From: Callorhinchus milii
Taxonomy: Eukaryota
Reading direction: 5' to 3'
Assembly (NCBI RefSeq): GCF_018977255.1
Contig: NW_024704742.1
Location: 19,532,001 to 19,596,000, forward strand
DNA: 64,000 nt
The translations under genes and the position numbers were made by a program. The notes beneath the pieces were generated by a model, which searched no databases, was not told the origin of the DNA, and saw only the letters and a list, made by a program, of their open reading frames with translations. Shown in pieces: positions 1,571 through 51,894 of the stretch (positions are counted from its first letter, which is position 1; each line of letters starts with the position of its first letter).

Positions 1571-2426
1571 GCATATGTCATGTTATAAGTGTTGATAATA
1601 TGTCCTTACTGTAGGATCTGTCCATTTTAAATATAAACATAATCAAATCTATGACTCAGAAGAGGAATTTCAACATTTCTAAAATGGAAATGTAGAAGAC
1701 TGCAAAGAGGATCTTTGTTTGATACACAAGTTAATGTACTTGATGAGAGATCATGTAATTAAGAACATAAGGACATAAGAATTAGGAGCAGGAGTAGGCC
1801 ATTCGGCCCCTCAAGCCTGCCCCGCCATTCGATAAGATTGTGGCTGATCTTCTGACCTAACTCTAATTACCTGCCATATCCCCTAATCCCTCTATTTTTT
1901 AAAAATTTATCAGTCTCAGCCTTGAAGATGTTCAAGGACTGAGCATCTACAGCCTTCTGGGGTAGTGAATTCCATAAATTCACTAAGAATTTGCCAAATT
2001 CCATAATTTCACTACCCTCCGAGTGAAGAAATGTTTCCTCAACTCTGTTCTCAAAGGCTGACCCTTAATTTTAAGACTGTGACCCCTGGTTATAGATTCT
2101 CCTACCAGGGGAAACAGTCCCTCAGTGTCTACTTTATCCGGCCCTTTAAGAATCTTATATGTTTCAATAAGATCTCCCCTAATTCTTCTGTACTCTGGAG
2201 AATATAGCCCTAGTTTATTCAGCCTATCCTCATAGGTCAGTCCCCTCATCCCAGGAACTAACCGAGTGAATCTACGCTGCACCCCCTCTCGGGCAAGTAT
2301 GTCCTTTTTTAAATAAGGAGACCAAAACTGCACACAATACTCTAGGTGCGGTCTCACCAAGGCCCTATACAATTGCAGCAAGACTTCCCTACTCTTGTAC
2401 TCTAAACCTTTTGAAATGAGCTAACA

Positions 2427-2738
2427 GGAGTCCTGTAGCTCAGTGGTTAGAGCACTCGCTTTGCAAGCGAGAGACCTGAGTCCAGGCAGATGGCGAAACC
2501 TTGGCCAAGTTTCCTTACTCCACACAGAGCCTAATAATAATCCCTCCAAAAAACAAAACGATAATAAATTGGTCATTTTCAATCTACGACTGTTTGTGGG
2601 ACATTGCTGTGCGCAATTGGCTGCCGTATTCGCCCACAAATATAGTCAACTCACTTTACAGTATATTCTGTGAAGCGCTTTGAGACGTCTAGAAGACGTG
2701 AAAAGCGCTATATCAAATGCAAGGATTATTATTTATTA
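2427..2738 (+). mobile_element. Near full-length tRNA-Ala-derived SINE (short variant) inserted in CR1
   Basis: Head GGAGTCCTGTAGCTCAGTGGTTAGAGCACTCGCTTTGCAAGCGAG (A box, TGC anticodon arm), (TTA)n tail, TAACA on both flanks (2422-2426, 2739-2743). Confidence 0.95.
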
Positions 2739-3141
2739 TAACATGCCGTTCGCCTTCTTAGTTGCTTGCTGCACCTGCAAACTAACTTTCTGAGACTGGT
2801 GTACAAGGACACTCCACTAGTCACATCCTGCCAATTCGAGAATGATCCGTTTATCCCTACTCTCTGTTTTCTACCCGTTAGCCAGTCTTCAATCCGTGCT
2901 AATATGTTCCCATTAATCCCATGGGCCTCAACCTTGTGCAATAGCCTTTTGTGTGGCACTTTGTCAAATGCCTTTTTAAAATCTAAATACACTACATCTA
3001 CTGGTTCCCCCCTATCTAACCTGCTAGATACATCTTCAAAAAACTCTAAAAGATTAGTTAAGCATGACTTCCCTTTTGTAAAGCCATGTTGACTCTGCCT
3101 AATCTTGTTATGGTCTTCCAGGAATCCCATAACGGCATCCT

Positions 3142-3469
3142 TAATAATGATAATAATAATAATCCTTGCATTTGATATAGCGCTTTTCACGTTGGGAGGA
3201 CATCCCAAAGTGCTTCACAGAATATACTGTAAAGTGAATTGACTGTATATTTGTGGGCGAACGCGGCAGCCAATTGCGCACAGCAATGTCCCACAAACAG
3301 TCGTAGATTGAAAATGACCAATTTATTATTGTTTTTGGTTTTGGAGGGATTATTATTAGGCTCTGTGTAGAGTAAGGAAACTTGCCCAAGGTTTCGCCCT
3401 CTTCCTGGAATTGAACTCAGGTGTCTCGCTTGCAAAGCGAGTGCTCTAACCACTGAGCTACAGGACTCC
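3142..3469 (-). mobile_element. Full-length tRNA-Ala-derived SINE (short variant) inserted in CR1
   Basis: Reverse complement of the same element with A box, B box (GAGTTCAATTCC) and (TTA)n tail. Confidence 0.95.
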
Positions 3470-5469
3470 ACAGTTGATTAAGGACTCAAGAATTTTCCCT
3501 ACCATTGAAGTCAGACTAACTGGTCTATAGTTCCCCATCTTTTCTCTCCCACCTTTCATAAATAGTGGTGTCACGTTTGCAATCTTCCAATCAATGGGAA
3601 CCGTTCCAGAATCCAGAGAATTTTGGAAGATCAAAGACAAGCCAACCACTATCTCAGTCACCACCTCTTTTAAAACCCGAGGATGTAGGCCATCAGATCC
3701 AGGAGATTTATCAGTTTTGAGACCTGATAATTTACCTAAAACCATTTCTTTATTAATGTTAATTCCTCCAAGTTGCTCGCTAACATTTTCTTCTTGGTTC
3801 CCCACTATTCTTGGTTTTCAGTGACTTCTAAGGTGAAGACAGTGGCAAAGTACTTGTTTAATGACTCTGCCATATCTTTGTCCCCGACTATAATTCCCCC
3901 CATCTCTGCCTGTATCGGACCCACATTTACCCTTGACAGCCTCTTCCTCTTTGTATATTTATAAAAACTCTTGCAGTCTGTCTTTATGTTCCTCGCTTGT
4001 TTGCCCTCATATTCCATTTTCTCCCTCCTAATCACTTTTTTGGTTCTCCTTTGTTGATCCCTAAAGTTCTCCCAATCCTCAGGTTTACTACTCATCTTAG
4101 CTGCTTTATAGGCTTCTTCCTTTAACTTTATACTTCCCAGGGTTTGGTTTGTAACTCTTTGTGGATAAATTACAGAAAAATATCAATCATTGCTTTCTTA
4201 GGCTTGAGGCTTAGTTTTCTTTTAGAGCCACCAATTATCATTGTTATCAATTACTGATCCATAGATTCCAGTCAAAATTCACTTTGGGTTATGTCTTAGG
4301 CTTTCCTACAGATTAAGCAATTTGCTTTGGGTTATTAAACACAATTTAAGCAATCTACTCCCATGTTTACATCAAAGAAACACTGATTTCATGCACTGTC
4401 CTGATCATTCAGTATCACACATGAGAGTTGATTCAGCCGAGTTGATTGCTTTCAGTTTAGATTGTACTTATTTGGTTTAAGTTTAGTGAAACGGTGGTAG
4501 TGAGTATGTTGAGGCGTCGAGCATATCCCTATTGAAGCTTTGGAAGCTGTTTTTCCATTCTTAAAAATCATTTCACCCACAAAATAAACAGTAAATTCAC
4601 TCTACATTATAATGTGTGAAGCATTTTGAGATGTCTCAACAACGTGATAAGGAGCTAAATCAAATGCAAGGATTATGATTATTATTATTGCAACTTGCAA
4701 TATTCAGCCTATCTCCATTTCTTTTGTAACATCCTGATCAATTTTCTTTTGATGTCATGCATAATACTATAAGCTAACCACTTATGTTTGTGGATTGTTA
4801 TCCTGCAGTGGATTAATTCCTTTCTCAGTTTTCAAGCGAGAAGATAGAGAGTACATGGGATTTCATTCAGACCTTTGAAATAATGTTCATAAGGTTGCAT
4901 GAAATATTAATTGTGTGAAGATCAGTGGCTGTTTCACTGTATTGTTGGCACCCAGTAAGGGTGTGCTGTAGAACTAATCCAATCTATTTTTTTTTGTAAA
5001 TTTGGATGCAAGTCAATCTTGAATTAAGCTTTTTGAGTCATCAGCCATTAGTTTTGAAACCAAATGCGACACAAACTGCAGCAATCTAAAAATGTTAATA
5101 CAAGTTGAACATTTTTTAAATAACATAATTTACTGCTTGGACTTGTGACTCGATCTGTTTCACTTAATCACCCAGATGTGGTACTGGGCTCAAAGATTTT
5201 AAGGTGCTTGTATACTCATTACTCAAAGTACTTTGATCACCCTGTATCCCTGGTCAAACAACACATCCAAAATTTATATTTGTGTTAAGCATTAACAATC
5301 ACACAATCTGTTCACCAGTTAGATGGACATTCAGTAAAGTAAAGCTCATTCTTATTTAACTGATCCGACAAATGCTATTTTGGTTGACTGCTGTGGGTGT
5401 TTCATTCATTCGCTATTTAGATACAGAAGGAAGGATTTCTTTACATCAATTGCAACAATTGCTTTGATC

Positions 5470-13747: not shown

Positions 13748-15165
13748 CCTATTTCTAATTTGCCTTCCTCGCAAAAGTCCTAGAACGTGTTGTTGCTAAT
13801 CAACTTCGCGCACACCTCTCCTCCCACTCCCTCTTCGAACCCCTCCAGTCCGGATTCCACGCTGCCCACAGTACAGACACTGCACTTGTGAAAGTCACAA
13901 ACGACATCCTCTCTATCTGTGACCAGGGCTCCCTCTGCCTCCTTGTCCTCCTGGATCTCTCAGCCGCGTTCGACACAGTCGATCACGCCATCCTCCTCCA
14001 CCGACTTTCCTCCGTCATCCGCCTCAGTGGGACCGCACTCGCCTGGTTCGAGTCCTAACTCACAATCCGCCAGCAGTACATCTGCACAAACGGCTTCTCC
14101 TCCCGCTCTCATCCGGTTACCTGCGGGGTACCCCAAGGATCCATCTTTGGCCCCCTCCTCTTTCTGATTTACATGCTCCCTCTTGGGGATGTCATCCGCA
14201 GACATGGGGTACACTTCCAAGTGTATGCAGACGACACCCAACTCTATTTTTCCACCTCACCTCACTTTGCGACCCCCACTTTGCCTACCTGTCAGACTTC
14301 AGGAGCTGGATGAGAGCAAACTTCCTTCAGTGAACGTTGACAAGATGGAAGCCATACTCTTTGGCTCTAGTCAACATCTAAAATCTCACAGTTCTCACCT
14401 CCTCCACCTACCCAACCTCCCCTTAAAACTCTCTGAAACTGTACGCAACCTAGGCGTCAGGTTCGACCCCCAATTATCCTTCCTCCGCCCATCCGGTCCC
14501 TCACCAGCAGCGCTTTCTTCCACCTCTGACGCATCGCCCGTCTCCGCCAATACCTCTCTCCGAAAGACGCTGAAACCCTAGTACATGCCTTTGTCACCTT
14601 TTGGCTGGACTATTCTAATGCCCTCCTCGCCGATCTCCCATCCACTACCATCCATAAAATCCAGATTATTCAAAACTCTGCCACTCGCATTCTCACTCAC
14701 ACCAAACTCCGTTCCCCGATTACCCCATTCCTTGCCAGACTGCACTGGCTCCCTGTCCCAGAGAGAATCGACTTCAAGATCCTCACTCTTGTGTTCAAAT
14801 CCCTCCACTCCTCTGCACTCCCCCTACCTCTCTGACATCCTCTACCCTCAAAACAGTACCTGTTGCCTTCGTTCCTTCGGGTCTGGCCTCCTCCTTGTCC
14901 CCTGAGTCCTCCGCTCCACCCTCAGCAGCCGTGCCTTCAGTCACTATGCCCCGAAACTCTGGAACTCCCTTCTTCACTCCCTTCGTCTCGCCCTCTCTCT
15001 TCCTATTTTCAGGTCTCTGCTGAAGACCTTTCTTTTCGACTGCACCTTTGGTCACCTTCCTCCCCCTCCCCCTGGCTCGGCCCCGGGATCCGTTACTGTG
15101 AAGCGCTCTGAGATGCCGTCCGGCGTGGAGGGTGCTATATAAATCCAAGTTGTTGATGTTGTTGT
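13748..15165 (+). mobile_element. L2 LINE, 5'-truncated, frameshifted RT relic with 3' tail
   Basis: [72 protein letters not shown]; ends GTGCTATATAAATCCAAG(TTG)n. Confidence 0.95.
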
Positions 15166-15689
15166 CCTCCAGTACGGTCTAGTACTTTCTGCATTTTCTT
15201 AGTTAATTTCCTTTTACTTTTACCCAATTAGGTGAGCACACCAATGGCCCACAAACACCAATGTTGGTCTGTTGGTCAGAATATTCAAAGAAAGCAAAAC
15301 ATTTGTTAAAAAGGGCAGAAAATTTCATTTCAGATTAAGACAGAATTGAAGAATTTTTCAAAATTCTGTGCAATCTTAAACTTTAAAGCAATGGTCCTGT
15401 GGCTAAGACCATGACAAATTTCAGGTCTCCCTCCGTCTTTCCTGTTATTAATTACTCTGCTGATGGAAGCAATATCATATCACTTGCCGTGGTATAAAAA
15501 CGGTATTAAATGCTGAGAGGCACAAAGTGGTTGTGAGCAACCGATTTATCTCTGACTGTGAGCGTACAACTAGGAATTCAAAGTACAACATTTCTAAGCA
15601 TATCACGTATCAAAATCAAAATCAAAAAGCTTGAAGCAAGACAGGAAACTAGAAAAAACTCCAACAAAGAATTGCAGCAAAAAGAATAT

Positions 15690-29287: not shown

Positions 29288-29905
29288 AAGAACATAAGAA
29301 TTAGGAGCAGGAGTAGGCCATTCGGCCCCTCGAGCCTGCCCCGCCATTCAATAAGATCATGGCTGATCTTCTGACCTAACTCTAATTACCTGCCTTATCC
29401 CCATATCCCCTAATGCCTCTGTTTTTTTAAAAATCTATCAGTCTCAGCCTTGAAGATGCTCAAAGACTGAGCATCTACAGCCTTCTTGGGTAGTGAATTC
29501 CATAAATTCTGAGTGAAGAAATGTTTCCTCAACTCTGTTCTCAAAGGCTGACCCTTAATTTTAAGACTGTGACCCCTGGTTATAGATTCTCCTACCAGGG
29601 GAAACAGTCCCTCAGTGTCTACTTTATCCGGCCCTTTAAGAATCTTATATGTTTCAATAAGATCTCCCCTAATTCTTCTGTACTCTGGAGAATATAGCCC
29701 TAGTTTATTCAGCCTATCCTCATAGGTCAGTCCCCTCATCCCAGGAATTAACCGAGTGAATCTACGCTGCACCCCCTCCAGGGCAAGTATGTCCTTTTTT
29801 AAATAAGGAGACCAAAATTGCACACAATACTCTAGGTGCGGTCTCACCAAGGCCCTATACAATTGCAGCAAGTCTTCCCTACTCTTGTACTCTAAACCTT
29901 TTGCA
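29288..29905 (-). mobile_element. Young CR1 3' end, near-identical to 1760-2415
   Basis: ORF 29410-29871 almost identical to ORF 1983-2381. Confidence 0.95.
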
Positions 29906-31542
29906 ACGATACCCTCCTACTAGAGATTTCCAGACAGATGAAAGAGGGAGCATTAGAGGAAAAAGCACGTTCATCAGAGACATATCATTTATGTTCTTGC
30001 AGTTCTGTAATAAAGTAACAATGCTGTTAAATAGATTTTAGAAAAATAATCATTTGAATAACAATTGCATGCAGTTATTTAATTTGTTTTAAATAAGTCA
30101 TGTTTTCATTCTTGAAGATAATTCATAGATTGTAATAATATGTTTGTGTCACAAGGTAATTATGTAAAAAAGTACTATTGTAGCTTCATGGCATTTCTAG
30201 TAGAGGACAGGCCGCAAAAGCTTTCTTGTGGCAATGTTCAACTGGAATCTTAGATACATTTGGAAATTGTAATACACTAGAAACACATTTCAACTCAAGC
30301 CGCATGCCATTCTTCAAATCAGTCAGAAACATTATGCCGGACGGCATCTCCACATACATATAATCAAGCTTGTTCCAGCAGCATTAACTCTGTGTATTGT
30401 CAGGCAGAGCAATTTGAAAGCAATCACTACTTCATTGTTATATGTAATGCATCCTGAATTAGTCGCAAGGATCTTACTTTGTTATAGAAGCTGCATATTG
30501 CCGAGCCTATTGTTTGGTCACATCCTTTGGCCTGAAGCTATATTTCAGACTTCAATGATCACATTCTCTTCTCAGCTGTCAAGTAGTGATACTGCAACAG
30601 TGAGACACACACNAAAAACACAGGGAAAGAGACAAAGAAAGGGATTTCAAAATGCATCCAGTACTTTTTCAGAAGTTTGTCTTTGGAGCTTGTCAATCAA
30701 ATTTCAGCAATAGAGCCCTGCAATCATGGTCCTCCTACAAAGTGAATGCTTCTGAATTCCATTAGTATAACAATTGTGGCCAAGAACCAGCAATAGCAGA
30801 ACCGACTTACTATTCATGTTTAGTAGAATCATTATTCTAATTGGCTTCCTATGCTCCCCATTCACTTCAAGACTTTTCCTTGTTTTTACAACATCTGCTA
30901 ACTTGACTGTGTTGGATCAGATTGTCTCTAATTTGTGGTCCTTTTTAATGGGATGCAACAATGGCCAACAATCCCCAGATAAAATTGGTCAACAACAACG
31001 ACTTGCATTTAGAAAGCACCCATCACGCCAGACAGTGTCTCGGAGCGTTTAGATCACTCACTTTGTGGCTGTTTGTTGGCATTACTGTGTGCAAACTGGC
31101 TGCAGCAATGGCCTGTAAAATACACAGGGAAATCAAGCATCTTGAGATGACCTCCCAACATGAGAGGCACTTTATCAAATGCAATGATTATTGTTATTAA
31201 TTTTTGATGGGATTTCTAAATGCAAATATCACAAATTAAATCATATCATCAGCAAAGCAAGTAATAGGTCAGAACACTTTGGAGCTTTATTTTGAAATAT
31301 GTTCATTTTTAAATTAACCTTTTTCCAAATAATCACAAATAGAAAAATAATCTAATTCAAATGACTATAAAACAACAGTGATACATTTTGCCACAAAATA
31401 AATACTATCTGTTACTTATTTAAAAAGCAGGTAACTCAGTCAACTCTGTTTTGTATTTTTTTATATCTTGCATTTTCATTTTATCCTCATGTACTCAGGA
31501 TATTTTACAAAAGTTGAAAATTCCAATACTTTATCTTACAAT

Positions 31543-31921: not shown

Positions 31922-34733
31922 ATCCGCCATGGCGGTGGTGTAGCCCTTATCTCAAGGACACCACTTGCCCTATCCCCCTACTCCTCTGGCTCTTTCCCCT
32001 CTTTTGAGCACCTCACCCTCTCCCACCCCTCCTTCCTCTCGCTCAAAATCCTCCTACTCTACCGGCCCCCTAAAACCTCTCCCACCTTCATCTCTGATAT
32101 TTCGACACTTCTTACATCTCTCTGCCTCTGCTCTGATCGCCTCATCATCCTGGGTGACTTTAACCTGCACTTCACACCCTCCTGCTCAATCTCCTCAGAT
32201 TTCTCTTCCCTGCTCTCCTTGCTCAACCTCTCCCTCCACATCAACTCCCCCACTCACAGTCACGGCCACCCACTCGACTTGGTGATCACCCGGGGCCTCA
32301 GTGTCTCGGATGTCACTATCACCGACAAGGCCATCTCTGACCACCACTTCATCTCCTTCACCACCTCCACCCCCCTCCCCACCTCCACCAGACCCACCAC
32401 CATCTTCTACCGCCCCTGGAAGAAGTTACCCCCACAATCCCTAACCGCTGCCTTGGAGTCCTCTGAACTCCTCTCCCTCTGGCCTTCAACCCTCACTGAC
32501 CCCTCTTCTGCTCTCACCCTCCTCCACAACACCCTCTCCTCCACACTTGACACTCTTGCCCCCATCACCTCCCATACTGTCTCCTCCCCCTGGTTCACCA
32601 CCCACCTCCGCTCACTGAAGAGCCAGGTGCGGGCTGCTGAACGCACCTGCGTCAAATCTGGCCTAACGGTCCACCGACAAATCTGGCTGGACCTCCTCAA
32701 AATCTACCGCTCCACTCTAGCCTCGGCCAAATCGTCCTTCTACTCCAGGATAATCCTGGAGGCGAAGAACAACCCCAGGCTACTGTTTTCTACCACATCC
32801 CGACTCCTCCGTCCCCCCGCCACCCCGCGCAGGTCATCTCCTCCAACCTTCACTGCGAGGAGATGCTGGATTTCCTTGAATCCAAAATCAAGGGAATTCG
32901 CTCCGCGGTCACTTCCCCTCCAACATCCACCCACCCCCTCCCTCCCACACTCCGACTCCTACCCATCCTCCCCTACACACTTTCGTACCCGTTTCCCCAC
33001 CCTCTGTCACCAAACTCATCCTATCCCTGAAACCCACCACCTGCTCCCTTGACCCCATCCCCACTCCACTCCTTATCTCCCAGCTCCACCTCCTTGCCCC
33101 ACATATCACAGACATCGTCAACCTGTCCCTCTCCTCTGGCTCTGTTCCCATTCCCTTAAAAACTGCCACCATCACTCCCACCTTGAAAAAACCCTCCCTT
33201 GATGCGTCGCAGCTATCAAGCTACCGGCCCATCTCCAACCTCCCCTTCCTGTCCAAGGTCCTGGAACGAGTTGTCCCAGCTGCGCTCTTTCCTCTCCAAC
33301 CATTCATTATTCGAACTCCTTCAGTCGGGTTTCCATGCTGCCCATAGCACAGAAACTGCCCTGGTCAAGGTCACCAATGATATCCTGACCATCTGTGACC
33401 AGGGCTCCCTCTGCCTCCTCGTCCTCCTCGACCTATCGGCAGCATTCGATACGGTCGACCACGCTATCCTCCTCCACCGCTTGTCCTCCCACCTCAACCT
33501 TCAAGGCCCTGTCCTTGAGTGGTTTAGGTCGTACCTCTCCCACCGTCTTCACTTTGTCTCCACAAATGGTTTTTCCTCCACCCCCGCACTGTCTCGTGTG
33601 GTGTCCCTCAGGGCTCTGTCCTCGGTCCCCTCCTCTTCACCCTCTATATGCTCCCCCTTGGTGACATCATCCGCAGACATGGGGTTAACTTCCACATGTA
33701 TGCGGATGACACCCAACTCTACCTTTCCTCCTCTACCCTCAACTCCACGACCACCGATGTCCTGACAGCTGCCTGTCCGACATCGAGTCCTGGACGAGAG
33801 ACAACTTTCTTCAGCTCAACGTGCGAAAACTGAGGCCCTCCTGATTGGCTCACGTCAGCACCTCCGCACCTCAGGCGCTGACAGCATCAGCATCCAAGGC
33901 TGCACTCTCCACCTCTCAAAGCCAGTCAGGAACCTCGGGGCTCTGTTCGACCCTGAGCTGTCCTTTCTCCCTCATATCCGAGCCACAACTGGCACAGCCT
34001 TCCATCACCTCCAGAATGTCACCAGACTACGGCACTGCCTCACCCCTCACGCTGCTGAAACTCTGGTCCACGCCTTTGTCACCTCAAGGCTGGACTATGG
34101 GAACTCTCTCCTCGCCGGCCTTCCCGGCACCTCCCTCCACAAGCTGCAGGTCATTCAGAACTCTGCAGCTCGTGTACTGTCCCGCACCAGGCTTCGCGAC
34201 GACATCACTCCCACCCTCGCTCGCCTCCACTGGCTCTGCATCCCCCAGAGGATCGATTTCAAGATCCTCATCCTCACCTACAAGGCCATTCATGTACCTC
34301 CTACCTCTCCGACCTACTATCCCCCTACCTACCTGCCCGTACCCTCCGTTCCTCTGGCTCCGGTCTGCTCCACATCCCCCGCCCCAACCGCCCTACCATC
34401 GGTGGCCGTGCCTTCAGCCTCTCAGCCCCGAGGCTCTGGAACTCTATCCCCCAGTGCCTTCGCCGCCTCCTCCCTTTTCTCCTTCAAGGCCGGTCTCAAG
34501 ACCTTTCTCTTTGACTGTGCCTTCAGCTCCCCTCTCGACTCTCTACCCCTCCTCGCCCCCTCCCTTCCCTCCCCTCACCCTGACCATTTCCCCCCTCCTC
34601 GCTCCCTCCCTTCCCTCCCCTCACCCTGACCATTTCCCCCCTGCTCGGGTCCTGACCCAACTGTACAGTGCCTTGGGATGTCCTCCCGACGTGTAAGGCG
34701 CTCTATAAATGGAATCTTGTTGTTGTTGTTGTT
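31922..34733 (+). mobile_element. L2 LINE ORF2 relic (APE endonuclease plus RT) with 3' UTR and (TTG)n tail; frameshifted
   Basis: GGGVALI, LLLYRPP, ILGDFNLH, THSHGHPLDLVITRG, ISDHH (APE); [48 protein letters not shown] (RT); tail at 34717-34733. Confidence 0.97.
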
Positions 34734-36748: not shown

Positions 36749-37071
36749 TGTTCCCGCTCCTGTGCCCTGCAAGCTTCCAACTGGGATCTAACACCAGTAA
36801 GGCTCAGTGGTGCATTGGTTAAACAAGACTAACAGTTTTTTTTCCTATAAGTGGAAATGTTCTACTTCTGGCAATCATCCTTCCTGCTCCATTCTCCTGC
36901 CCATAGCTCTCCACTCTTTCAATTCACATCTATTTCTTTCTCATTTCATTTGACTCACCAACAGTGACTGAGTCTTCAGACACTATGACCCTGTTCTTTG
37001 AACTCTGCCAAAATTCTTCTTGCAATCAAATACGTTAGAGGAGAGGGTTTTTTTTGGGTATGGGAGGGAAA

Positions 37072-37612
37072 ACAACAACAACAACAAGATTCAATTTATA
37101 GAGCGCCTTTCACGTCGGGAGGACATCCCAAGGCGCTGTACAGTTGGGTCAGGACATGAGCAGGGGGGAAATGGTCAGGGTGAGGGGAGGGAAGGGAGGG
37201 AGCGAGGAGGGGGAAGAGAGTCGAGAGGGGAGCTGAAGGCACGGTCAAAGAGAAAGGTCTTGAGACCAGCCTTGAAGGAGGAAAGGGAGGAGGCAAGGCG
37301 AAGGCACTGGGGGATGGAGTTCCAGAGCCTAGGGGCTGAGAGGCTGAAGGCCCGGCCACCGATGGTAGGGCGGTTGGGGCGGGGGATGTGGAGCAGACCG
37401 GTGCCAGAGGAACAGAGGGTACGGGCAGGTAAGTAGGAGGATAGTAGGTCAGAGAGGTAGGAGGGAGCAAGGCTGAGAATGGCCTTGTAGGTGAGGATGA
37501 GGATCTTGAATTCGATCCTCTGGGGGATCGGGAGCCAGTGGAGGCGAGCGAAGGTGGGAGTGATGTGGTCACGATGCCTGGTGCGGGACAGTACACGAGC
37601 TGCAGAGTTCTG
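37072..37612 (-). mobile_element. Young L2 3' end, same family as 31922-34733
   Basis: High identity to reverse complement of 34155-34733; (AAC)n at 37072. Confidence 0.95.
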
Positions 37613-38399
37613 AAAAGTGTCTATGTGACTAACTTTTGCTTAATGAAAGGAAGCCCCATTACGATATGCAATTATTATTAAGGATTTCCCATTAGAACAT
37701 GTTGTCTTTTACACCCCATTCTCCAAATTTTTTCTGGGAATTTTTTAAAATGTTATTTATGTCTACAGATATCTAATTCACATTCTCAGCACTAGATAGC
37801 ATAGATAGTAATATGAAATGTTGTATTGGAAAATATGATCCTAACTATCCATTTGATCACATAATTGTTCCAATCCATTTTTTGTCCTAAACAAAGAAGA
37901 GATTTATTAGATCTGTTCAGATCTAATCTGTTCAGTGTTAAAACAAGCAATGAAAAATACTTTGCTCAAAAGTCTCTTAGAAACAATTACTTATATGTTG
38001 TCTATGGACATGGAGTTCCTTTGGACTTTTGACCTATGCAGGATATATGGGTCTCACACTGTGAATTGCCAGTTATCTGGCACCCTGCATGGCTGTAGAT
38101 TAATGAAAGTAATTTAATCACTGCCAGATTGAACTGCAAATAAACAGTTTATTAAGCTTTTTTAATAAATGTACCTGAGATTTTTTAATTTTTTTTATTT
38201 ATATTTACTTGCTCTGCCCCCAACACCCTCACTTGGTTTCTCTGTCAGGCTCTACTTGCTATAATACATCCTTGACCTACCATGACTTTCTGAGCAGTTT
38301 ACATTTCCATGACTGCATTCATGCAGGTCTTAATGGGTAGAGTGGTGCAAGCTGGACAATAAGCAGGAAGATTGCCAGACAGTGCTCTCAATGTCACGC

Positions 38400-44841: not shown

Positions 44842-45190
44842 ATAATAATAATCCTTGCGTTTGATATAATAATAATAATAATAATCCTTGCATTTGATAT
44901 AGCGCTTTTCACGTCGGGAGGACGTCCCAAAGCGCTTCACAGAACACACTGTAAAGTGAATTGACTGTATATTTGTGGGTGAACGCGGCAGCCAATTGCG
45001 CACAGCAATGTCCCACAAACAGTCGTAGATTGAAAATGACCAATTTGTTATTGTTTTTGGTTTTTTGGAGGGATTATTATTAGGTGTGTGGAGTAAGGAA
45101 ACTTGCCCAAGGTTTCGCCCTCTGCCTGGAATTGAACTCAGGTCTCTCTCTTGCAAAGCGAGTGCTCTAACCATTGAGTTACAGGACTCC
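44842..45190 (-). mobile_element. Full-length young SINE with duplicated tail
   Basis: Intact head and body; tail unit TATCAAAYGCAAGGATTATT present twice. Confidence 0.95.
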
Positions 45191-45253
45191 ACAATAGTGC
45201 CTTATCACATCTTCAAGACGTCTCAAAGCACTTCACAAAAATGCTATAAAGTG

Positions 45254-45413
45254 AAACACAAAATACTGCAGATGCTGGAAACCTAAAAACAAAAACAGAA
45301 GTCAGAATGGTTCTGATGAAGGGTCATGGACCCGAAACGTTGACTCACTTTCCTTTTTCTTCCATAGATGCTGCCTGACCTGCTGAGTGTTCCCAGCAAC
45401 TTCTGTTTTTGTT
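45254..45413 (+). mobile_element. Penelope-like element terminal (pLTR) fragment with inverted ends
   Basis: Similar to reverse complement of 50620-50740; inverted repeat AACAAAAACAGAAGT (45288-45302) / ACTTCTGTTTTTGTT (45399-45413). Confidence 0.8.
45309..45345 (+). ncRNA. Minimal type I hammerhead ribozyme motif
   Basis: ggtt-CTGATGA-a-GGGTC atg GACCC-GAAA-cg-TT-gact: catalytic boxes, 5-bp stem II, palindromic AACGTT helix III, short wobble stem I. Confidence 0.7.
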
Positions 45414-46019
45414 ATATTGTAAAGTGAATTGACTGTATATTTTCTGGGCAAAATGCGGCAGCCAATTGAGCACAGCAGTGTCCCACAAACAGTCGTGGGT
45501 CGAAGTGACCAGTGTTTTTAGTTTCTTTTAGATAAGGCACTATATCAAATGGATTATTATTATGTTGAACCGGAGGTCAAGAACAATCATACATGTGCAA
45601 AGGATCCCTGGAACTCAGCGAAAATCTATTTTGTCAAAATCGTTGAAGATTCAAGGGAAAAGCTGAATTAGTTGTTTGCCAGTTTGAGTTTGAATTTATT
45701 TCCAAGTAGTATGAAAGCTTAAAATTTCCAGAAAAATAAATCACCATGAGATGAGAGTGGCAGTAAACCCTCTGACTTTCAGCAGAAGGTTTTATCGCAG
45801 GCAATCTTAGTATTGCCAATGCTATGAAGCACATTCTTATTGTAAATTAAAAGAGGTTTATTCAGGAAATGTATCGAATGAATATTCGTAACTAATAACA
45901 ACATTGGAAGAATTCACTCATTTTTTGATTCAATTAATTGTTCCCTTATATAAGAAATATCTCTCTAATACATGAAAGGCGCTATACTAATGTAATTTTG
46001 TTGTTGTTAATAGCCAGAT

Positions 46020-50596: not shown

Positions 50597-51355
50597 ACAA
50601 AACAAAATAAAGGTCAGCAGATGACGGAAATCTGAAAACAAAAACAGAAGTCGCTAGGAACATTCAGCAGGTCAGGCAACATCTATGGAGAAAGGAAAGT
50701 GAGTCAACATTTCGGGTCCACAGCCCTTCTTCAGAACTGGGGCATGTTGGGAGGGAGAGGCTTTTAAGGGTTAACAGAAAATGGGGCGGCAGGGCAAGGA
50801 AGACAAAGGAGAAAATGGGGTAAAGGAGAGGGGAAGATGGGTCAAAGAGGTGTTAATGATGCAAAGCAAATGGGGGGAGGTGAAATTGCAACAAAATAGG
50901 CAGATCAGAGAGAGAAAAGGTGCGTCTGGGACACAAATGGTGTGGTAATGGTCACAGAAGAAGGGGAGGGGGAAGGTGAGCTGTTACGGTCTGAAATTGT
51001 TGAAATCAATATTGAGGCAAGAGGGCTGTAAGGTTCCCAGCAGATAAATGAGGTGCTGTTCTTCGAGCTTGCGCTGTGGCTCATTGGAACAACGTAGGAG
51101 ATCATGGATGGCGAGGTCAGAGTGCGAGTGGGATGGAGAGTTGAAATGGCAAGAGACCGGAAGCTCAGTGCTGTGCTTGCGGACAGAATGTAGGTGTTCG
51201 GCAATCTGTGTTTGGTCTCCCCAGTGTAGAGGAGATCACATCGTGAGCAGCGAATGCAGTAATCTACATTGCTGGTAGTACACGTAATTCACTGTCTCAC
51301 ATGAAAACTGTGTTTGGGGTCCTGGACAGTGGTATAGGAGGAGGTGAAAGGGCAG
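50597..51355 (-). mobile_element. Penelope-like element 3' part: GIY-YIG endonuclease relic plus pLTR
   Basis: Minus-strand translation: TCTTSNVDYCIRCSRCDLLYTGETK..AEHLHSVRK..LPVSCHFNSPSHS..QRKLEEQHLIYLLGTLQPSCLNIDFNNF*; stops and indels present. Confidence 0.88.
50702..50738 (-). ncRNA. Degenerate hammerhead ribozyme motif
   Basis: Minus strand: agtt-CTGAAGA-a-GGGctgtggaCCC-GAAA-tg-TT-gact. Confidence 0.55.
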
Positions 51356-51894
51356 GTAACTCTGCAACACAAAGTGCCCTTTTCTGTGAACTCAATCACA
51401 GCATAAACTTCATCTCATCCACAACTCTCAAACTCGTATATTGTCGGACAGCATGCTCCACATACCCGTTATCTCCGCCCAACCCAACCTCACCAAGCTC
51501 CACTAGTCCCTAGAAGGCTAGCAGATCAACTTCAACATCTACATTCAAATTGTTTCACAATCTTGGCCATCCCTCCCTCTGCAATCTCCTCCAGCCCAAT
51601 CTTCCAACCATCATGTCCTTGTTCTCTGGATCGCTCCCAAAATCTATTTAACCTTGTGTCTTCTGTCTTCAAAAAATTTTAATACATGTTGTTTGGTTTA
51701 ACATCCTTTCTTCCCTGCTTAGGCTTCTGTGACTATTCTATCAATCTTGCCCAATAATCTAATGACTAGGGGCACAGCATTAGGCAATAAAAACTGGAAG
51801 AACACAGATGTGAATCACAGTCAATGCTGAGTTAGCAGATCTTAGCCATCTACATAATTGGACACTACAATTGCCCTCACTGTCCCAACAAATT

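Follow-up and report, generated by a model that had tools for sequence, protein, structure and literature searches.

The 160 bases at positions 45254 to 45413 of the Callorhinchus milii DNA analyzed here (a stretch of 64 kb, referred to as the window) carry a hammerhead ribozyme, which raises the question of whether this insertion is a mobile unit in its own right, a working ribozyme, or the remnant of another element. Taken together, the layout of the insertion, a related copy nearby, and public contigs of the family indicate that it is very probably the 3' end of an endonuclease-positive (EN+), Neptune-like Penelope-like retroelement (PLE), inserted dead on arrival.

Layout of the insertion and its hammerhead

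The insertion, its target, and the repeat that it splits comprise the following features.

45195..45511, reverse strand: host SINE-type repeat split by the insertion, with halves 45195-45255 (87%) and 45414-45511 (92% to the window majority)
45241..45255, no strand: left copy of the target-site duplication (TSD), 15 bp, with 2 differences from the host-repeat majority; its final 2 nt are equally compatible with the end of the inverted tail
45254-45303, reverse strand: inverted 3' end of the pLTR in two parts, the tail and 15-18 nt of pLTR
45254..45287, reverse strand: pLTR tail, 32-34 nt, inverted, identified by alignment to the 3' end of a sister copy and by contig joints
45288..45302, reverse strand: inverted copy of the last 15 nt of the direct pLTR, 100% complementary to 45399-45413
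45301..45317, no strand: fold-back hairpin of 7 bp at the inverted junction, its right arm being the start of the hammerhead core
45308..45413, forward strand: direct pLTR, 5'-truncated and without tail, 87.5% over 104 nt to the sister copy, belonging to a high-depth family
45309-45345, forward strand: minimal type I hammerhead with the features described in PMC4209133
45414..45428, no strand: right copy of the TSD, 15 bp, with 1 difference from the host-repeat majority

A complete minimal type I hammerhead is present at 45309-45345, and the layout originally predicted for it (boxes, stem II, a palindromic AACGUU and a wobble stem I) is borne out letter by letter. The catalytic box CUGAUGA occupies 45313-45319 and is followed by a single extra A at 45320, between positions 9 and 10.1. 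Stem II (GGGUC/GACCC, 5 bp, 45321-45325/45329-45333) encloses a loop of 3 nt and leads into the GAAA box at 45334-45337, the palindrome AACGUU (45336-45341) takes the position of helix III, and stem I (45309-45312/45342-45345) has 4 bp including two G-U pairs. The predicted cut lies at 45341/45342, after the triplet GUU. The features that define membership in the class are found here: CUGANGA and GAAA boxes, U16.1-H17, a G10.1-C11.1 pair closing helix II, the extra nucleotide between 9 and 10.1, a palindromic helix III, and a helix I in the 4-5-bp range. A motif descriptor composed post hoc, with the motif already known, gave one match in the window and none in 100 first-order Markov sequences of equal length. 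The covariance-model check did not recover the motif, as hammerhead families are absent from the 7 matches up to E 10 in an Rfam search of the window.

The metazoan PLE minimal hammerheads treated in the sections of PMC4209133 consulted are alike in having no loop 3, palindromic 15.2/16.2, the extra nucleotide between 9 and 10.1, the G10.1-C11.1 pair and a 4-bp helix I, and in occurring mostly as solitary copies. In contrast, helix II has 5 bp here and 7-8 bp in the Schistosoma families, and position 17 is a U here. Cartilaginous fishes are not named in those sections among the metazoan hosts of PLE hammerheads.

The hammerhead had originally been placed in a mini-element with inverted ends and 15-bp inverted repeats. 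The perfect 15-bp inverted repeat exists (arms 45288-45302 and 45399-45413), but it is not terminal, its left arm lying 34 nt inside the left boundary. Terminal inverted repeats of the DNA transposon or MITE kind were rejected because this arm is internal. The order observed is TSD, inverted tail with 15-18 nt of pLTR, fold-back, direct pLTR without tail, TSD; the inverted pLTR piece, the 30-40-nt tail at one end, and the TSD are the marks of an EN+ PLE insertion.

The near-duplicated flanks noticed originally are real and, by comparison with other copies of the host repeat, constitute a decayed TSD in a SINE. The 15-mer is single in all 17 other host-repeat copies of the window that span the site, and the host halves overlap at the insertion by exactly this 15-mer; at each junction 1-2 bases fit the target as well as the insert. 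With 3 mismatches in 15 positions, the two TSD copies have diverged more than expected from the few differences between the insertion and its family majority, which counts against the preferred explanation. The ATT/AAT found in the host majority at both TSD boundaries, a preference of the Anolis enzyme, was rejected as evidence, being a loose post hoc criterion that applies at 5 of 128 positions of a neighboring copy.

The SINE designation of the host repeat is reasonable because a tRNA-like head was recognized in a better-kept neighboring member of the family (45122-45184; 25.6 bits, under the gathering score). The tail end of the host copy is adjoined at 44842-45194 (reverse strand) by a member of the same SINE family that is younger, tRNA-headed and nearly intact and has a 33-bp tail duplication. 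Behind the host SINE copy, at 45531-45563, a short piece of its own 3' end recurs in inverted orientation and leads into an ATT-repeat tail, with a perfect 13-bp match between 45194-45206 and 45531-45543; the SINE may have undergone 5' inversion on insertion.

Sister copy and source element

The origin of the insertion is approached through a second locus in the window.

50597..50741, reverse strand: sister pLTR, found by sequence comparison, with a partly decayed hammerhead and the tail in direct orientation
50990..51378, reverse strand: broken GIY-YIG endonuclease remnant upstream of the sister pLTR, with one in-frame stop and one frameshift

The sister copy is the sole pLTR relative in the 64 kb, lying 5.2 kb away on the opposite strand with 87.5% identity over 104 nt. 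It has no inversion, and its pLTR runs straight into the sequence that the insertion carries inverted at its left end. In its hammerhead, two pairs of stem II are gone, as is the CG of the palindrome. A pyrimidine-rich spacer separates it from the endonuclease remnant, so that a hammerhead-bearing pLTR lies downstream of a C-terminal GIY-YIG domain, the arrangement characteristic of EN+ PLEs. As a whole, 50597-51378 (reverse strand) is a 5'-truncated Penelope-like copy. The earlier suggestion of a pLTR remnant of a Penelope-like element is thus supported by the sister copy joined to a GIY-YIG remnant, by the tail geometry, and by the literature.

The remnant retains a CCHH motif, with CxxC between two tyrosine motifs and two histidines downstream, in a gene broken by the stop and the frameshift. 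In tblastn, proteins with RT and GIY-YIG domains match it at E 1e-13 to 1e-17; for a stingray protein the value is E 2.5e-22, and the alignments take in the end of the linker cysteine motif. The C-terminal piece of the remnant has 281 protein matches at E up to 0.001; seven of ten relatives whose names were retrieved come from a ray, a skate or the whale shark, one from a sea urchin, and two carry no organism label. A Pfam scan of the window endonuclease pieces gave no match, and GIY-YIG is matched in the relatives only, mostly with scores below the curated cut-off. Both RVT_1 and GIY-YIG are matched in 4 of 11 scanned relatives (E up to 0.05; P0049, P0117 and P0030 among them), or in 5 of 11 with P0005, whose RT part matches LINE-type fragments of the window. 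Neither a PLE RT nor a full-length master was found in the 64-kb window. LINE-type endonuclease/RT fragments lie at 31922-34700, 37000-37640, 13900-15200, 1983-4182 and 29410-29916, and the LINE copy at 31.9-34.7 kb looks near full length and is frameshifted.

The CX2-5CxxC linker is complete in P0007, P0030, P0049 and P0117, and the window remnant has its damaged end only. This motif occurs in Neptune and Nematis and is absent from Penelope/Poseidon, according to the portions of PMC8557442 consulted. Because the relatives carry the linker cysteine motif, the source element is likely Neptune-like, as far as protein comparison indicates. Some cartilaginous-fish gene models (P0007, P0013, P0014, P0063) contain or end in this PLE endonuclease sequence, under names that include, for P0007/P0013/P0014, 'mucin-2 isoform X2' and 'neuromedin-U receptor 1'; there the endonuclease probably represents annotation artefacts or exonised repeats.

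The same locus bears on the earlier description of the insertion as a retrozyme-like unit, that is, a monomer of a non-LTR retrozyme, in which tandem hammerhead repeats give rise to circular RNA. Non-LTR retrozymes are likewise non-coding and PLE-derived with a type I hammerhead, and the preprint bioRxiv 10.64898/2026.07.22.740005 describes, in the text consulted, retrozymes together with monomer derivatives in general; the single chondrichthyan genome that it covers has retrozymes. They are, however, defined there by at least 2 tandem units with complete hammerheads, and the 64-kb window contains no tandem unit; the sole relative lies 5.2 kb off on the other strand, attached to an endonuclease gene, and the inverted tail geometry is a PLE signature. 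A retrozyme origin is accordingly very improbable, and the description as retrozyme-like is not upheld in a window without a tandem unit.

Abundance and decay of the family

Contigs of 4 public runs (of 24) were aligned to 45150-45900 at 80% likeness, a filter that pushes all depth and difference figures given here downward. The joint between 45413 and 45286 on opposite strands occurs in all four runs (3, 7, 8 and 2 contigs among those listed), and tail-like loose ends behind 45413 occur among the contigs listed for two of the four. The opposite-strand joints and the loose ends indicate that the pLTR normally continues at its 3' end into the left segment. In run X1 the summed depth reaches about 154,000 at 45333, compared with about 9 in unique flank, which is not a copy number but roughly indicates a family of very high abundance. 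Run X18, possibly an RNA run, leaves the unique flank uncovered, an outcome without bearing on expression.

At the junction itself (45303-45307) the X1 depth is 115-211, about 0.1% of that at 45333. Some similar junctions must exist elsewhere, since this depth is greater than the single-copy value of about 9, but the inverted junction is rare in the family and is not that of an amplified mini-element. This low share, taken from depth sums that are not copy counts, weighs against the possibility that the insertion is a non-autonomous fold-back mini-element, transcribed and reinserted as a 160-bp unit with Penelope-like enzymes. Such a unit would account for the clean TSD, for the stable, hairpin-closed fold (z about -2.9), and for a junction depth exceeding the single-copy value; among the listed contigs, one (X18 record 17) aligns from 45302 to 45413. 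The low folding energy, however, follows from the 15-bp overlap, which the insertion pattern generates anyway, and the sister copy has no inversion. The mini-element reading is improbable, and the inverted ends that had been assigned to a unit of its own are better regarded as a by-product of insertion, given a junction at about 0.1% of the pLTR summed depth. Among the contigs listed, none spans the whole insertion or its junctions, and the filled site is known from the window alone.

Differences listed within 45309-45345 fall at N7, in loop II, and in two CpG dinucleotides. In X1 they amount to 12.5% of depth at C11.1, 14% at G12, 11% at C15.2 and 9% at G16.2, compared with 10% and 18% at a CpG of the host SINE. 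The core differences in the family are neutral decay of dead copies at the CpG rate. Because dead copies decay neutrally, the conservation of core relative to flanks across copies is non-discriminating, and a comparison of master to master is needed.

The same core was sought by a pattern scan of metagenome contigs, which gave at least 117 loci. A tblastn match to PLE RT/endonuclease proteins lies near the core at 30 of the 117 among the loci listed, and an inverted copy of downstream sequence is found upstream in 23 of 94 testable matches (0 of 94 in the reversed-sequence control). Stem I, which the pattern left free, reaches at least 3 bp in 16 of 21 clusters, 114 matches having sufficient flank; the shuffled mean is 4.3 and none of 5000 shuffles reaches 16, the clusters being related and not fully independent. 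Among the metagenome matches listed, BLAST similarity covers the core alone (28-41 nt), with no copy of this pLTR family. The hammerhead core and the inverted layout are, on the evidence of these contigs, general to PLE ends. At four loci (L009, L040, L051, L094) two opposite-strand cores lie close together, as a palindromic version of the same insertion pattern.

Predicted activity and proposed mechanism

Although the original prediction that the core looks intact holds for every letter, the junction hairpin is predicted to pair C3 and U4, and no tandem unit or dimer partner is present in the 64-kb window. Unpaired probabilities, from a folding program that ignores tertiary core contacts, are 0.02-0.03 for C3 and 0.06-0.2 for U4 with the junction, and 0.64 and 0.74, respectively, without it. 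In the same calculations the lowest fold is more stable than the active dimer by 21 to 72 kcal/mol with the junction and by 10 for the bare core, whose dimer has an active fold of -14.5 kcal/mol compared with -24.3 kcal/mol for the lowest, so the active form is not favored. Cleavage of hammerheads as dimers is reportedly the subject of work by Lunse et al. Minimal PLE hammerheads are mostly solitary, with no monomer cleavage and low dimer cleavage, in the experiments covered by the consulted sections of PMC4209133. This solitary copy is probably inactive despite its intact letters, because G12 is lost from family copies at the rate of CpG decay and the catalytic box is predicted to be paired when the junction is present. 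An active ribozyme retained by the host to cut a host transcript, which would fit the presence here of every core letter, unlike in the sister copy, is extremely improbable in view of the missing dimer partner, the predicted pairing of C3 and U4, the neutral decay at G12, and the behavior of monomers in PMC4209133.

On the preferred explanation, insertion of a PLE 3' end, the endonuclease of the element would make two staggered nicks 15 bp apart at an AT-rich spot in the SINE. One nick would prime RT at an inner start site (45413) for about 105 nt, through an uncut hammerhead, and the other at an outer start site, the end of the tail, for about 50 nt of opposite-strand cDNA; the fold-back, which is short, and microhomology of about 3 nt would then join the two products. 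The direct piece extends 34 nt beyond the cut site, which implies that the template was uncut at this ribozyme. The hammerhead would be a passenger, weakly active, through dimerization or with help from a protein, in master elements arranged in tandem. In the parts of PMC11167929 consulted, the tail is bounded by two RT start sites, both strands are cut and extended, uncut RNA is the main insertion substrate, and the ribozyme is protein-assisted. The Anolis Poseidon described there is thus alike in a tail that is the stretch between two RT start sites, in uncut-RNA insertion, and in an AT-rich target; it differs in that relatives of the present family carry the RT-EN linker cysteine motif, absent in Penelope/Poseidon (PMC8557442, as consulted), and in that the present family is known here from sequence alone.

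The EN+ PLE insertion units of PMC3846280 and PMC8557442, to the extent that these were consulted, share a direct 5'-truncated pLTR, an adjacent inverted piece, a 30-40-nt tail at one end, a TSD, and a junction palindrome. In PMC3846280, where a direct pLTR is reported next to an inverted one together with a TSD and with palindromes where the inversion joins, the tail is optional and 31 bp long; in PMC8557442 it measures 30-40 bp. The present unit differs in measuring about 160 bp without an ORF and in its TSD of 15 bp, compared with 8-10 bp in the rotifer examples. For junction palindromes, the passages of PMC3846280 consulted favor self-priming on an antisense template, unlike the two-primer model, and the single copy here is insufficient to choose between the two. 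A more specific suggestion, which is tentative and may well be wrong, is that the junction records the unsolved second half of Penelope insertion: the first cDNA, made on an uncut template, would end about 5 nt upstream of the core, snap back on the first letters of the core, and then join the second cDNA, from opposite nicks and two RT start sites.

In a literature search, none of the papers returned describes this family as far as their listings show; preprint supplements may list it, and Repbase and Dfam lay outside the search. The insertion is an ordinary leftover of a published class, a solitary Penelope end with a minimal hammerhead, one of very many, and is of limited importance as it stands. 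Nevertheless, it is a clean small example in which TSD, tail and junction are all readable, and in a family of such high copy number the junctions as a set could discriminate statistically between the two-primer model and antisense self-priming. If the suggested snap-back is true and recurs across the thousands of copies of the family, it would be the fold of the hammerhead, and not its cleavage, that sets the 5' boundary of short insertions.
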